Shown here: positions 15,899 through 21,740 of the stretch, in pieces
How positions within the stretch are numbered: the stretch's first letter is position 1
How the letters are laid out: every line of letters begins with the position of its first letter
Source of the DNA: Octopus vulgaris
Lineage: Eukaryota
DNA length: 64,000 nt
Assembly: GCA_951406725.2 (NCBI GenBank)
Contig: OX597830.1
Span: 74,338,001-74,402,000 of the forward strand
Reading direction: 5' to 3'
Made by a program: the position numbers and the translations under genes
The notes under the pieces: generated by a model
The model's input: the letters and a program-made list of their open reading frames with translations, nothing else
The model's database searches: none
Told to the model about the DNA's origin: nothing

Positions 15899-16712
15899 TA
15901 ATAATAACAATAATAATAATAAAAGCAGATTATAGATTTAACAAATTTCTTAGGGCTGTTTAAATATCGCCCGAGCCACGCTGAAGTAAAGATTTATTAA
16001 ACCTTGGTGAAATGTATATTACTTTATGGGCCTTGAACTTGGCATTGTACCATAATATTTGTTGTGAGACTATGCCAAGTTCTTATGCTAAATTCTTAGC
16101 ATTGGAAGAAAAAAACCTTACAAATAATAACAGAAGTGAGGTGGTTAGAGAAATATTGTTACAAACACTGAAATAAAAATGAAGAAATCGAGTAATTTCA
16201 CAGTGATTGACAACTTTGTAGGATTTGTACTTTAGGGATAGTAGCGACATGTTTGTAACTGATATGGAAGTTTTACTTCAGAATCTATTTAGCTGGGAGG
16301 CATGTAACAAAAAACAAACAAACAAAAAACAAACAAACAAAAAACAGGGAGACTAAGAAAATCTGTGACTGGAAGCGTACAGTAAAGTGCGGGAGGGAGT
16401 TAGTGGTGGTAAGGAGTGACAGAGAAGAGATGGCAGAAAATTGGTGTTGGAGTGTCTGTGAAAATTCTATTGCGGCTCTACACACCATATAGAAGTGAAA
16501 TATTACGGAGGAGAAAAGGATGTGAGAGAGAAAGTGAGGGAGAGAGAGAAAGAGAGAGCGAGTGAGTCTATATGCTCGCAGTTTATGGAAAATTTCATTG
16601 ATATATATTAGCTATTAATAATTCTTTGTTATATTTTTTAATACAACTAATACATTGTAAATCTATTTTTATTATATTATGATGGCTGTCTAGAACTAGG
16701 TGTGAAATCTGC

Positions 16713-17090
16713 AGGCCCAAGCGTTGCTGTGTGGTAAGAAAGATGTTTCCCAATCAGTCCCACTGCGTAGCATCCAGGGCAAGTGTTTCTACTATAGGCT
16801 CGAGTCAATCAAAGCTTCGTGAGTGGATTTGTAGATGGAAACTGAAAGAAGCTCCTCGTATATATATATGCATTTACGTGTGTATCCGTGTTTGTCCACC
16901 TACAGCGCCATCACATTGCAACCGATGCTGGGGTGTTTATGTTCCCATGACTAAGCAATTCGGCAAAGTAACCGATAGAATAAGTACTAGGCTGACAAAG
17001 AATAAGGTCCTGGGTCGATTTCTGCGACCGGAACCCTGTAGAGCGATGCTCTAACATGGCGGCAGCCAAATGACTCCAACAAGGTTGTAA
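16713..17090 (+). mobile_element. SINE family B
   Basis: GCTGTGTGGTAAG, GTGAGTGGATTTGTAGATGGAAACTGAAAGAAG, CCGATAGAATAAGTACTAGGCT. Confidence 0.8.
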
Positions 17091-17299: not shown

Positions 17300-20200
17300 A
17301 GGGAGTATTTAAGATAACCGCAAGTTAATATAATTAGCTCTACGTCCGTTTCACGCTTATGGCTATTGAAACATTGCATTGGCGCATCCAGGTGAATATT
17401 AGTACTTAACCGGAACAGAACGTGAGAAAGCATTTTATTATATTACATCGTACAATAACCATAATGGTGAAACTTACTTTGGTGGTCTTAACTTTACATT
17501 TGCCCGGTTTTTCGTAACTAGTAATACTACTAAGTATAAGAGCTATTTATCAGCTCTACTGGAAGCATGATATTATAATTAATGTAGAACTATAGAACTT
17601 TCACTGCCCCAGCAGCTCAATCATCATCATTGTCAACACCATCTCCTCTGCTTACTACTACTAGTACTACTCCCACTATATATCGACAAACATCTTTGTC
17701 TTGGAATCGACCTCCTCAATCATTACCACCGTCAACATTTCTTCTACCTACTACTACTACTACTACTACAGCTACTACTACTAATGCTATCTCAAGGAAT
17801 TTACCTCCTACAGGTCACAAAGGTCGCCAAAACTTCAAACTATCATCTACACCTTTCACAGCTCACACACATACACGCACCTACACACCCACTCGAAACC
17901 CCATCATTTGCCGATATTCTCTTCGCCATAGACTGTGCACTGATAGAGACTGCAAATTCACCCATTTACCTGGAACAAAACGCTCTATCCCCACAAACTA
18001 CAACAGCAACCACCATAATACAACATCACCACAACCACCAATATCTCAAACAAGGAATCCCCAAATCTGCCGCTATTCCCAGCGAGACAGATTGTGTTTG
18101 CACAGGGATTGCCCCTTTACCCATCTCCCGGGGACTCGTCGGACATTTAAAGATAACCACTCACATAAAAATAGCCGCGGCCACAGTCACCTGCGGTTCC
18201 CTACACAGGAAACCACCTCTTCTTCCTCTTTTTTTAGCTATAATGAATCTAGCAAAAGAACTGGAAAAAAACATCCGAGCTATCACCCACCGCCATCCAC
18301 CACTATTACCCCACTACACATGCCATTAAAAAGCAATCAAATAAACAAATCACCAAAACAATTAAAACCATCCACTCTCGCCTCAACATTTCTGCTTAAT
18401 GCCCAAGGCATCAGCCCTTCCACCAATACACAAAAATGGAAGATAAGATTCCTGGAGGACTGGGTCGAGGCCCATCCAAACCACATCCCTTTCTTCGTCC
18501 TCACTGAAACCCATCTTAGTGACCTCCACTTGGAAGCCGAGGTGAAAGTTAAAAATTTCAAAACCATTCGTGCTGATCGTGTTGGCAGAAGAAAGGGTGG
18601 GACTGCCATTTATGTCCATGATTCATTCTCAACAGAAGCCATGAACATATTTTCGAATGGATACTGCGAAGCAGTCGCTGTATTCAGTCAAACCAACAAC
18701 TTAACAGTAGTTGGGCTCTACAGACCACCCCAAACGCCCCTACCATGCTTCAAGGAATGCCTCAACAGCATAAAGTGTTTCATTCAGCAGTGTCAACCTG
18801 ACAACATTTTAATGATGGGAGATTTCAACCTTCCCGGGGTTGACTGGTCTACAAACAGTCTGTCGCCAGGTTCTTCTCTCTCAACCCCTGACAGGGAGGC
18901 AGTGGAATCGCTTCTTGACTTCATGGATGACTTCTTCTTGTCCCAACTGGTACTCGAACCAACGAGATGTCACAAAAACGTCTTAGACTTAATTTTCAGC
19001 AATCACACTGATACTATCCACAATATTGCAGTGGAGAAAACCCTACTCTCCGACCATGACATGGTTCTCTGTGATCTGAGATTTCACTGGCCAAAATGCA
19101 AAACAAATGTCATCCCTCCTGTTCATCCATTTGACACTATGGATTTCCACAATGCAAACTGGGAAGCGATCAATAATGATCTTGCACAAGTCGATTGGTC
19201 CTTCACGCACACATACACACCCACTAACATCAAAAAGTCCTGGCAGTCACTTGTAGACACCATCACGAACATATGTGCAAGACACACCCCATTAAGATCT
19301 GCAAACAAATCTAAGTGTCGAATCCCTAGAAATAGAAAATCTCTCATAAGGAAAATTAAAAGAATCAACAAAAAGATCAACATGCTGAAATACTGTCAAC
19401 AGCAACACACCAACCTGACTGCCATCTCGTCGCTAGAGATTAAAAAACATAAACTCCAAAACAACATGATGTCTATCATCAATAGTCAGCGAAGAGCTGA
19501 AGAGGCCTGGGCCATTGAGAAGATCAAACTCAATCCCAAAGTGTTCTTTTCATTTGCAAAAAAACACAGAGTCACTGGTTCTACTGTTGGCCCTCTGATT
19601 GATGAAAATGGTATTCTTCAAGACAATGCCAAAACCATGGGAGAAATATTGCAGAAACAATATTGCTCTGTTTTCAGCAATCCTGATATGACTGATCTGG
19701 GCTGTATCAGTGATGTTACTCCCCAATACACTTTATCGGACATAACATTTGGCGCTCCTGATGTCTTAGCAGCAATAAAGGAAATGAAGCATAATTCAGC
19801 AGTAGGTCCCGATAGGTTCCCTGCTTGTGTCTTGAAGATGTGTCAAAACCAACTTGCACCCCCTCTAGCCAATCTGTGGCGGAACTCATTGGATGCTGGA
19901 TATATACCAGAAGACCTTCTATCCCAGTCTGTTGTCCCAGTTTTCAAAAAAGGAAACAAATCGCTTGCCGTGAATTACCGTCCAATCTCACTCACCTCTC
20001 ATATCATCAAGGTATTTGAGAGGGTGCTGAGATCGCGTATGACTCACTTCCTTGAGAGTCATAATATGCTGAACCCCAACCAGCATGGATTCCGTAATGG
20101 GAGAGATTGCCTGACGCAGCTACTGCATCATTTTGATGATATTTTGAGAGCCTTGGGAGAGGGTTCCAACACTGATGTCATCTACCTTGATTTCAGCAAG

Positions 20201-21426
20201 GCCTTTCACAGGGTTGATCATAAGATCCTTCTGAGAAAGCTGTCCAATATTGGTGTCACTGGAAAGCTGCTGCAATGGATCAAGTGCTTCCTCTCTAACA
20301 GAACCCAACATGTTGTAGTCGAAGGAGTCAAATCCAGCCCAGCCAAAGTCAGCAGTGGTGTCCCACAAGGCACTGTGTTGGGCCCACTTCTCTTCATCAT
20401 CTACATAAATGATATTACTGACACCATCAAACACAGCAACATCAGAACCTTCGCTGATGATTCCAAGCTCCAGAAGGTCATCAATGGCGTGGATGACCGA
20501 ATAAACCTTCAGTCAGACCTACTAGCTGTTGTCCAATGGGCGGAAAAGAATAACATGTTGCTAAATGAAGACAAATTCGAACTGATCCACTTTGGAAGGG
20601 AGGACGCTCTGAAACTCCCATACTCTCTTCCTTCTGGAGAAATTCTCATGGCATCCAACAACATCAGAGACCTGGGAGTAACAGTGGACAACAACATAAG
20701 CTGGGCTACACATATAAGCAGCAAAGTTGACATGGCCCGCAGAATGTGTTCCTGGATTCTCAGAACCTTCCAGTCGAGAGATTCCCACGCTATTATCCTT
20801 CTCTTCTCCACTTTTGCCCGACCCCACCTTGAATACTGCTGTCCACTGTGGTCTCCCTACACAAAACAAAATATTATGAGAATTGAAGCTCCCCAAAGGT
20901 CAATCACAAAAAAGATAGATGGCATGTCAGACCTTGACTACTGGGGTAGACTAGAGAAGCTGAAATTGTATTCACTCCAACGACGCCGTGAACGCTACAT
21001 TATCTGTATGATGTGGAAAATATTCCATCAGCACTGTCCGAATGATGTTGGCATCACCTTCAAAATGCATCCAAGGCTTGGACCACGTGCCATCCGTCCA
21101 CAACAAAAATCTAAATCGCATCACATAACGACAATACGGCACAACTATTTCACCTCAATTGGACCCGCTCTCTTCAACATTACACCAGGACACGTCAAAA
21201 AAGAAACTGACCACACAAAATTCAAGAAGTCTTTGGACAAATTCCTTCAAACAGTACCGGACAAACCATCCACACCCGGATATGTCTCCGCAAACAATAA
21301 CTCTCTGCTCGAATGGGCCTTGGTGCCCAAATCCTGAACTGAAAGACTTCGCCAGGTGGTGCTATTAAGTTAGACATGGCCTGGGCCAATACTGGCCAAA
21401 AACCTTTCTAAGTTATTCTAAGTTAT
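17300..21426 (+). mobile_element. Near full-length CR1-group LINE (5' boundary approximate)
   Basis: ORF above, then a ~70-nt 3'UTR with a TGGCC...GGCCA hairpin and a (TTCTAAGTTA)2 tandem tail at 21406-21425, typical of CR1/L2-type tails. No clear TSD. Confidence 0.85.
17630..21337 (+). CDS. CR1-group non-LTR retrotransposon polyprotein: 2x CCCH zinc finger + AP endonuclease + reverse transcriptase (ORF2 proper probably starts at ATG 18320)
   Basis: Stop-free 1235-codon frame. APE motifs LLNAQGI, LTETHL, GGTAIY, LYRPP, GDFNLP, LDLIF, SDH. RT motifs YRPISLTS, QHGFR, YLDFSKAF, GVPQGTVLGPLLF, FADD, RDLGV. CR1-like C-terminus RPHLEYCCPLWSPY...LYSLQRRR. The 17630 start is TTG; the first in-frame ATG is 18320. 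Confidence 0.95.
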   Translation: MSTPSPLLTTTSTTPTIYRQTSLSWNRPPQSLPPSTFLLPTTTTTTTATTTNAISRNLPPTGHKGRQNFKLSSTPFTAHTHTRTYTPTRNPIICRYSLRHRLCTDRDCKFTHLPGTKRSIPTNYNSNHHNTTSPQPPISQTRNPQICRYSQRDRLCLHRDCPFTHLPGTRRTFKDNHSHKNSRGHSHLRFPTQETTSSSSFFSYNESSKRTGKKHPSYHPPPSTTITPLHMPLKSNQINKSPKQLKPSTLASTFLLNAQGISPSTNTQKWKIRFLEDWVEAHPNHIPFFVLTETHLSDLHLEAEVKVKNFKTIRADRVGRRKGGTAIYVHDSFSTEAMNIFSNGYCEAVAVFSQTNNLTVVGLYRPPQTPLPCFKECLNSIKCFIQQCQPDNILMMGDFNLPGVDWSTNSLSPGSSLSTPDREAVESLLDFMDDFFLSQLVLEPTRCHKNVLDLIFSNHTDTIHNIAVEKTLLSDHDMVLCDLRFHWPKCKTNVIPPVHPFDTMDFHNANWEAINNDLAQVDWSFTHTYTPTNIKKSWQSLVDTITNICARHTPLRSANKSKCRIPRNRKSLIRKIKRINKKINMLKYCQQQHTNLTAISSLEIKKHKLQNNMMSIINSQRRAEEAWAIEKIKLNPKVFFSFAKKHRVTGSTVGPLIDENGILQDNAKTMGEILQKQYCSVFSNPDMTDLGCISDVTPQYTLSDITFGAPDVLAAIKEMKHNSAVGPDRFPACVLKMCQNQLAPPLANLWRNSLDAGYIPEDLLSQSVVPVFKKGNKSLAVNYRPISLTSHIIKVFERVLRSRMTHFLESHNMLNPNQHGFRNGRDCLTQLLHHFDDILRALGEGSNTDVIYLDFSKAFHRVDHKILLRKLSNIGVTGKLLQWIKCFLSNRTQHVVVEGVKSSPAKVSSGVPQGTVLGPLLFIIYINDITDTIKHSNIRTFADDSKLQKVINGVDDRINLQSDLLAVVQWAEKNNMLLNEDKFELIHFGREDALKLPYSLPSGEILMASNNIRDLGVTVDNNISWATHISSKVDMARRMCSWILRTFQSRDSHAIILLFSTFARPHLEYCCPLWSPYTKQNIMRIEAPQRSITKKIDGMSDLDYWGRLEKLKLYSLQRRRERYIICMMWKIFHQHCPNDVGITFKMHPRLGPRAIRPQQKSKSHHITTIRHNYFTSIGPALFNITPGHVKKETDHTKFKKSLDKFLQTVPDKPSTPGYVSANNNSLLEWALVPKS

Positions 21427-21541
21427 AAACATAACAGTAGTAGTCGTAAATCTTTTTGTATGCAGACGAAATAATATATATATATATATATTATTTCGTC
21501 TGCATACAAAAAGATCTACGACTACTACTGTTATGTCTATA
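21424..21541. repeat. 118-bp spacer-less palindrome centred on (TA)n
   Basis: Arms pair base for base except two A:C mismatches (21428/21537 and 21449/21516). Confidence 0.95.
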
Positions 21542-21544
21542 TAA

Positions 21545-21740
21545 ATATGGCTTAGTGGTTAGAGTGTTCTACACACGATTACGAGATGACAGTTTCGATT
21601 CCCAGACCGGGTGTTGCACTGTGTTCCTGAGCAAAGCACTTCATTTCGCGTTGCTCTGCAATCATTTCGTCATCTGACATGTGATACACGGTGCACCTCT
21701 ACAGATAAATATCGATTTGATGGATGGAATCAGCTTACGT
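21545..21740 (+). mobile_element. SINE family C
   Basis: TGGCTTAGTGGTTAG A-box, GTTTCGATTCC B-box, TGTTCCTGAGCAAAGCACTT core. Confidence 0.7.

Follow-up and report, generated by a model that had tools for sequence, protein, structure and literature searches.

Two CCCH zinc fingers stand in one reading frame with a reverse transcriptase in a 64,000-nucleotide stretch of Octopus vulgaris DNA (GenBank assembly GCA_951406725.2, contig OX597830.1, positions 74,338,001 to 74,402,000 of the forward strand; this whole stretch is called the window). They lie in a 5′-truncated copy of a young long interspersed nuclear element (LINE), here named family A. Comparison of its copies and relatives suggests that the fingers are C-terminal domains of a separate first open reading frame (ORF1), and that a conserved heptamer, U_UUU_UUA, near its end is likely to be a −1 frameshift site at which ORF1 is fused to the apurinic-like endonuclease (APE) of ORF2 and to its reverse transcriptase (RT). 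We give this reading a probability of about 0.72. For family A taken alone the frameshift is somewhat less probable than for the lineage, and its own AUG may serve too. Published sources are cited by PubMed Central number, and statements about them refer to the available parts of their texts.

Slippery heptamer and dual-coded overlap

In the ORF1 frame the critical run reads TCT TTT TTA, which is a correctly phased U_UUU_UUA, the sequence named as the −1 shift site of HIV (PMC5009743). All junctions (19/19) have the same heptamer in the same phase, namely those of family A, of its sister family B and of all 17 metagenome loci (including L112 and L114), which were retrieved by finger patterns and not by the junction. 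Family B (L069-L088 and L118-L137, G000), found with P0006, is also young and has the same architecture, with an ORF2 that is 78% identical and lacks an AUG, and with an open ORF1 in many copies. The codon before the heptamer, tabulated for 17 junctions, varies between those for S, H, L, D, P and A, but its last base is T in every case. No other Phe-Leu pair has this spelling (0/62), and the chance of the heptamer spelling is 0.013-0.033 per site. Within the 410 codons of family A ORF1 only two phased heptamers occur, both in the overlap of the reading frames. The second, A_AAA_AAC, was rejected as a shift site because it is not kept in family B, where it is replaced by C_AAA_AAC.

Past the heptamer the −1 frame is open at 16 junctions (0 stops in 982 overlap codons; L104, L112 and L114 are left out of this count), and the +1 frame contains 70 stops in 966 codons. 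Under synonymous recoding of ORF1, 40.7 stops would be expected in the −1 frame against the 0 observed. This is the fair control; the 94.5 stops expected from the upstream rate overstate the effect, because the composition differs. Upstream of the heptamer, at a distance of 0-21 codons, a stop closes the −1 frame, and the ORF1 stop follows the heptamer at a distance of 32-101 codons. An older, decayed family of the same genome (L089-L100, G000) has an ORF1 with the same fingers and helix, and four of its 12 copies retain the exact heptamer. Three relatives (P0012, P0023 and P0024) have Gln-Val-Phe instead of x-Phe-Leu ahead of the terminal helix, and perhaps use a different slippery heptamer.

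The features of the window copy are as follows.

17591..17594, + strand: left copy of a likely 4-bp target-site duplication, TATA, seen from the empty allele; three extra bases (17595-17597) stand before the element
17598..21423, + strand: 5′-truncated copy of the young APE-RT LINE (family A), delimited by genome copies and their common 5′ end
17598..17890, + strand: rest of the Ser/Thr/Pro-rich ORF1 linker, without a start codon in this copy
17891..17983, + strand: CCCH finger 1, C-x8-C-x4-C-x3-H followed by L-x-GT-K/R-R
18050..18142, + strand: CCCH finger 2, a duplicate of the finger 1 type
18229..18236, + strand: slippery site, T7-A in this copy and T6-A in intact copies (U_UUU_UUA, Ser-Phe-Leu)
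18237..18329, + strand: dual-coding overlap, in which the C-terminal amphipathic helix and stop of ORF1 lie over the −1 frame into ORF2
18266..18272, + strand: second phased heptamer, A_AAA_AAC, only in family A
18320..18322, + strand: in-frame ATG of family A ORF2, 7 nt before the ORF1 stop; family B has CTG here
18389..19072, + strand: apurinic-like endonuclease domain, limits approximate (PF03372 and PF14529; matches to L1 ORF2p structures)
19952..20683, + strand: reverse transcriptase domain (PF00078, E 3e-30)
21335-21337, + strand: ORF2 stop, TGA
21338..21423, + strand: 3′ untranslated region (UTR) with predicted hairpins and a short tandem repeat tail (about two 10-nt units), no poly(A)
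21424..21427, + strand: second (right) TATA of the likely target-site duplication, whose first TA may belong to the tail repeat

The run has seven T in the window (18229-18235). It is six T long in 34 of the 38 copies fetched for family A and in 20 of 20 copies of family B. Exact pattern matches in the genome (n=117) are divided into 108 with T6, four with T7 and five with T5. With T6, ORF2 is in the −1 frame relative to ORF1, and separate overlapping frames are found in 25 of the 30 family A copies first examined; the extra T puts both into one frame. The sequence-only reading, which described the fingers as fused in this copy to APE-RT, is literally true, but the cause is a one-base slip in a homopolymer of which T6 is the norm (108/117). 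The extra T is a mutation, a product of reverse-transcriptase slippage or an assembly error, and not a functional variant. A sub-lineage with T7 was considered and rejected, because the three other T7 copies do not have the private base of the window copy at 18204. Single long frames are also found elsewhere: L042 (T4) has one of 1411 residues from an ATG, and in L104 (567-4778) ORF1 and ORF2 share a frame of 1404 residues with the slippery heptamer still present upstream, which may be either a natural fusion or a contig error. In the predicted protein P0040 a finger is followed by His-Phe-Phe and then by the start of the endonuclease, with no Met, as in the fused frame of the window.

Possible routes to ORF2 translation

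In the proposed mechanism, most ribosomes would finish the ORF1 protein (ORF1p) and a small share would slip back by one base at the heptamer, so that much ORF1p and little ORF1-APE-RT fusion would be made, as is the case for retroviral Gag and Gag-Pol. The fusion would be without the last helix of ORF1, and from the fingers onward it would be the same protein that the extra T of the window spells out. Because the slip in the window sits on the conserved −1 heptamer, the fused protein is probably made at a low level by intact copies. The fingers would bind the RNA of the element and thereby tether the enzyme to its own template. A much broader proposal, which we regard as doubtful, is that an old and wide LINE lineage follows a retrovirus-like Gag/Gag-Pol strategy, with the −1 shift at U_UUU_UUA joining the reader domains of ORF1 to the endonuclease and RT. 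In the families of this genome the PHD domain would have been replaced by a Myb/SANT domain, which would give the nuclease a DNA-binding domain and steer the fusion into TA microsatellites, and the CCCH fingers would bind the RNA of the element and might themselves raise or lower the frameshift where an RNA structure would otherwise do so.

Several observations weigh against the frameshift. The 17 metagenome loci are not independent, since four are near-copies of others and the nine placed in the tree fall into one sub-clade, and the junctions do not cover P0066-P0073, the ORF2 proteins closest to families A and B. The fused long frames of L042 and L104 belong here as well, and the best Pfam CCCH match of the fingers (E 0.005, 17 bits) is below the cut-off of 27. 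A conserved RNA stimulator, usually but not invariably a hairpin or pseudoknot 5-9 nt downstream, was not found in folds modelled without pseudoknots: RNAalifold gives 0 pairs over 12 junctions, a hand-picked 8-bp helix is no better than shuffles and shows no covariation, single-sequence folds downstream are mostly weak, and family A RNA downstream of the heptamer is barely structured and no better than shuffles. Strong single hairpins occur at a few loci, for example L101 and L117 (z about −3), and some functional frameshifts work without a stimulator (PMC5009743). Finally, of the 16 junctions that show the ORF2 start, six have an upstream AUG, family A among them. The ATG of family A, which is CTG in family B, is 7 nt before the ORF1 stop. 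From there to the endonuclease Asn there are 26-30 codons, and such an arrangement would suit reinitiation.

These start codons speak for the view that ribosomes terminate on ORF1 and reinitiate at an AUG or near-cognate codon in the vicinity of its stop to make ORF2, with the heptamer kept for another reason or used in some families only. There are parallels: the start of L1 ORF2 is independent of its AUG (PMC5009743, PMC1965478), SART1 uses an overlapping stop-start (PMC3894237), and reinitiation has also been proposed for L1. Nevertheless, reinitiation leaves unexplained why a letter-perfect heptamer is found so far upstream of the stop and why the −1 frame is open throughout the overlap. 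In 11 of 12 distant metagenome loci (among L101-L117), moreover, the TAA that ends ORF1 is formed by the codons which, read in the −1 frame, give the Leu-Asn of endonuclease motif I, so a restart at or after the stop would lose this motif; the N17A change at a conserved endonuclease Asn lowers the activity of Zorro3 below 5% (PMC1965478). No AUG lies between the −1-frame stop and the motif-I Asn in the other 10 of the 16 junctions, and 10 of the 11 family B copies whose ORF2 is intact have their first Met 200 codons past the heptamer. We consider reinitiation an unlikely explanation.

The −1 frame might also be entered through slippage of RNA polymerase, which would add one U at the T6 run. 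The same product would result, the same conservation of the run and the overlap would be expected, T7 copies exist in the assembly, and the two types of slippage may occur at common sites (PMC5009743). However, genomic copies pass through RNA, and among them T7 is no commoner than T5 (4 vs 5); the extra T is absent from all sequencing contigs at the window site, though contigs drop rare variants. Six T's are short for polymerase slippage, and this route appears very improbable. Least credible of all is a genuine single-ORF LINE in which the fingers are fused to APE-RT as the functional form. The window frame of 1249 residues and the long frames of L042 and L104 agree with it, but the copy counts contradict it, as 108 of the 117 exact matches are T6. 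In addition, the fused copies stem from different indels, and the terminal helix of ORF1, which the window copy has out of frame, is conserved in family B and P0006; in intact copies ORF1 ends after this helix at the TAA of 18327-18329.

ORF1 domains and relatives of the family

In full-length copies ORF1 is separate and encodes 409 residues, in the order N-terminal Myb/SANT-like domain, polyglutamine tract, Ser/Thr/Pro linker, two CCCH fingers and terminal amphipathic helix. The earlier proposal of a minimal ORF1 made of a Thr/Ser/Pro tract and two fingers does not survive this comparison; ORF1 looked minimal because truncation of the window copy by about 950 nt removed the ATG, the Myb/SANT-like domain and the polyglutamine tract. 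The idea that the window frame opens with a non-AUG codon at 17598 was rejected, because 17598 is the truncation point of this copy. The N-terminal 84 residues alone score 27.8 bits on PF13837 (Myb/SANT-like), which is marginal against the cut-off of 27, and the whole ORF1 scores 22.4 bits. The best of five models of this domain, the only one considered, has three helices with a predicted local distance difference test score (pLDDT) of 76; its Foldseek matches are weak, mostly to homeodomains, with the trihelix Myb/SANT domains of GT-1 and Zeste in addition, all at E>=0.65. A PDB sequence search with the domain gave nothing below E 0.4. No RRM, CCHC, Tnp22, PHD or esterase domain was found in the 409 residues by a Pfam hidden Markov model scan at E<=10.

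The description of the fingers from the window alone has stood up well. Two 31-residue repeats, 53 codons apart, 24/31 identical and each of the form C-x8-C-x4-C-x3-H, are present at 17891-17983 and 18050-18142, and the single frame of 17588-21337 continues from them into APE and RT, as had been stated. Purifying selection on this frame had also been claimed. Between the two fingers seven codons are identical, 17 differ synonymously and seven non-synonymously; 23 of the 37 base differences are at third positions, and the two other forward frames keep only 8/30 and 6/30 residues. Between families A and B, the non-synonymous and synonymous rates (dN and dS) are 0.12 and 1.74 for finger 1, with dN 0.12 and saturated dS for finger 2, values similar to those of the endonuclease (dN 0.15, dS 1.31). 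The synonymous excess, the poor match of the other frames and dN far below dS argue that the repeat is not due to chance and that the frame has been selected. The three Cys and the His, whose loss in other copies would have spoken against a finger, are invariant at zinc-finger spacing in a 20-row alignment. The fingers are CCCH-type and part of a LINE ORF1.

The finger model has a pLDDT of 87, and solved CCCH chains match it weakly (Z 2.0-2.5 over 31-32 residues, root-mean-square deviation about 3). The host RNA-binding proteins MBNL1 (E 0.002), Nab2 (E 0.04) and CPSF30 (E 0.13) are matched by the profile of the finger family, the first of them mainly because of the upstream fingers of relatives; the fingers of the family differ from those of these proteins in their C-x8-C-x4 spacing and in Pfam scores below the cut-off. 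In the ESM Atlas all leads were below 0.9 and pointed to zf-CCCH clusters, and a word-indexed protein search with ORF1 residues 255-360 gave no match. By analogy with the host CCCH proteins, the fingers are likely to bind the RNA of the element.

The finger pair matches 48 protein clusters at E<=0.001, in 44 of which a finger of the same type is followed by [LIV]-x-GT. As judged by eye, most of these relatives have two further CCCH fingers upstream and often a PHD-like motif; at E<=0.001 a Pfam PHD domain is reached in two of the 48, and Tudor/MBT-like matches occur in two. Finger 1 of the window is homologous to the last of the three fingers in distant relatives. In P0005 and P0027 a Tudor/MBT-like domain precedes the PHD-like motif and three CCCH fingers, so that two chromatin readers are possibly combined in one ORF1. 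The 17 metagenome loci came from a scan with the finger alignment, and 14 of them have an ORF2 of 30-41% identity; the finger proteins are therefore LINE ORF1s. The same alignment found nothing in IMG/VR, where a scan with the endonuclease gave one weak locus (E 1e-4), and prokaryote genomes gave nothing.

An RT tree of 50 rows has one clade of 33 rows with 100/99 support, which includes families A and B as well as nine metagenome ORF2s; the tree is without P0086, P0089 and P0090, whose alignments are short, without loci of fewer than 850 open codons, and without named CR1 references. The one named ORF2 relative, P0086 of Mnemiopsis leidyi (33% identity), is outside this tree. The layout, with ORF2 in the −1 frame and overlapping the end of ORF1, is kept across a deep, well-supported RT clade, the other members of which have a PHD-like domain and three CCCH fingers, for the most part as judged by eye. 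In the families of this genome the PHD domain and two of the fingers may have been lost, the last finger doubled and the Myb/SANT-like domain acquired, although the direction of these changes is unrooted.

Insertion sites, known systems and significance

A DNA search of the O. vulgaris genome with the window element, in which 40 of 1383 candidates were scored, found 39 other places that are 98-100% identical to the window copy. All matches among these best 40 begin at 17598, and in the 39 other places the shared sequence continues upstream of this point. The 38 family A copies fetched whole were the best scorers, so the sample favors young members. Nine of them reach a common 5′ end 956 nt further upstream, 37 have the same 3′ end, and 22 have an ORF2 of exactly 1005 residues from Met; the median mismatch rate against the window copy is 0.26%. 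A full-length element is about 4.8 kb long, and the window copy is missing about 950 nt, comprising the 5′ UTR and the start of ORF1. The first Met of its stop-to-stop frame (17588-21337) is residue 245, downstream of the fingers. With its 5′ end gone, this copy has no start of its own from which either protein could be made.

The window element has the marks of a LINE, with dispersed copies, variable 5′ truncation, a fixed 3′ end and a short target duplication, and of an APE-type LINE, with APE and RT in one ORF; the best PDB matches of its endonuclease and RT are L1 ORF2p structures. A contig of sequencing run X9 joins 17594 directly to 21428. This empty allele makes the TATA target duplication likely and the insertion polymorphic, and the family, being young and polymorphic, is probably still active. 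The 3′ UTR is nearly identical in families A and B, the tail of family B being a different, 8-nt repeat; the fold of the UTR in the window copy has a z of −2.3, and six of 200 shuffles are as good.

In 33 of 37 copies of family A the tail is followed by 20 nt of alternating pyrimidine-purine repeats, for the most part TA; the same test is passed by 10.9% of window positions and by 30.6% of positions starting with TA. TA-type repeats also follow 11 of 11 family B copies with intact ORF2. Among the 5′ flanks, whose boundaries are rough, 20 of 38 pass, and the repeat type is often equal on both sides of family A copies, which argues for a pre-existing target. Insertion into TA can be explained without the Myb domain, either by microhomology between tail and target, as the tail ends in TA, or by endonuclease preference; a role of the Myb/SANT-like domain in targeting is speculation.

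The LINE of the window sits at the left edge of a palindrome (21424-21541) with 59-nt arms, 97% complementary, and a TA run at its center, possibly a small non-autonomous DNA transposon or foldback. The insertion region is flanked by 16690-16860 and 21547-21700, which by eye resemble short interspersed repeats. Elsewhere, L039 (G000:C16 near 20380000-20386000) is without its 3′ half in the fetched stretch and has a second junction match about 5.5 kb away, and may be a rearranged or tandem insertion.

CR1 elements are characterized by a short tandem repeat 3′ tail instead of poly(A), the lack of RNase H and of a C-terminal knuckle, and a 3′ UTR stem-loop. Family A likewise has a tandem-repeat tail without poly(A), and neither RNase H nor a C-terminal knuckle in the Pfam scan. 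The family works like a CR1-group LINE, a placement based on general motifs and the tandem-repeat tail and not on named references. With CR1-lineage LINEs of the Jockey superfamily it shares two ORFs, APE and RT, and a modular ORF1; PHD is common in a survey that includes that lineage (PMC4120745), and PHD-like motifs occur in the distant relatives described above. This survey of 448 elements distinguishes ORF1 types I-V, with RRM, CCHC, PHD, Tnp22, esterase and zf/lz (PMC4120745). In the Pfam scan, family A does not have the domains of types I-IV (RRM with CCHC; Tnp22; PHD with or without RRM; esterase). In the available text of the survey no ORF1 of the present make-up is described, in agreement with the initial remark that CR1 ORF1s usually carry other domains; the words CCCH and frameshift do not occur there, nor is Myb/SANT in its table.

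The closest parallels for the frameshift are TRE5-A and TRE3-A of Dictyostelium, APE-type elements that lack long terminal repeats (non-LTR) and show targeted insertion, for which a −1 frameshift is stated to be necessary for ORF2 (PMC5911963). They differ in being amoebal, in targeting tRNA genes, in their oligo(A) tail and in the zinc finger at the C terminus of their ORF2 (PMC5911963). With HIV Gag/Gag-Pol, family A shares the heptamer, its phase and a predicted nucleic-acid-binding first protein that is extended into an enzyme frame (PMC5009743); in contrast to HIV it is a non-LTR element, with no protease domain in the Pfam scan and no conserved downstream structure found. The octopus elements RTE-2_OV and Dong are also full-length, potentially active LINEs with microsatellite-associated ends (PMC9115989). 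RTE-2_OV is set apart from family A, by description and not by sequence, as a single-ORF RTE with a C2H2 finger, and CR1 is not mentioned in the available text of that paper (PMC9115989).

The available texts of PMC13343379 and PMC5203782 contain neither CCCH nor Myb, that of PMC3708506 does not contain the word frameshift, and a −1 shift for an animal LINE ORF2 is not mentioned in what was available of a review of frameshifting (PMC5009743). Neither CCCH/Myb ORF1s nor −1 frameshifting in CR1 was found in titles and the starts of abstracts, a search that left Repbase, Dfam and subscription journals outside, so that a catalogue entry may exist. What appears to be new is a LINE lineage that has CCCH fingers in ORF1 and a strongly conserved signature of −1 frameshifting, together with, in the O. 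vulgaris genome, a Myb/SANT-like domain and insertion into TA microsatellites. Within the literature compared, and as far as its texts were available, the CCCH fingers and the Myb/SANT-like domain extend the list of ORF1 domains.

A review of protein synthesis by non-LTR elements discusses stop-start, internal ribosome entry site and 2A routes and names ORF2 translation an open question (PMC3894237). For this question the lineage offers a precise, conserved and testable site, and families A and B, with and without an AUG, are a natural pair with respect to the ORF2 start. If the frameshift is real, ORF2p would not be a separate protein but would carry the RNA-reading and the DNA- or chromatin-reading domains of ORF1, and views of cis-preference, of targeting and of the annotated ORF2 start would change.

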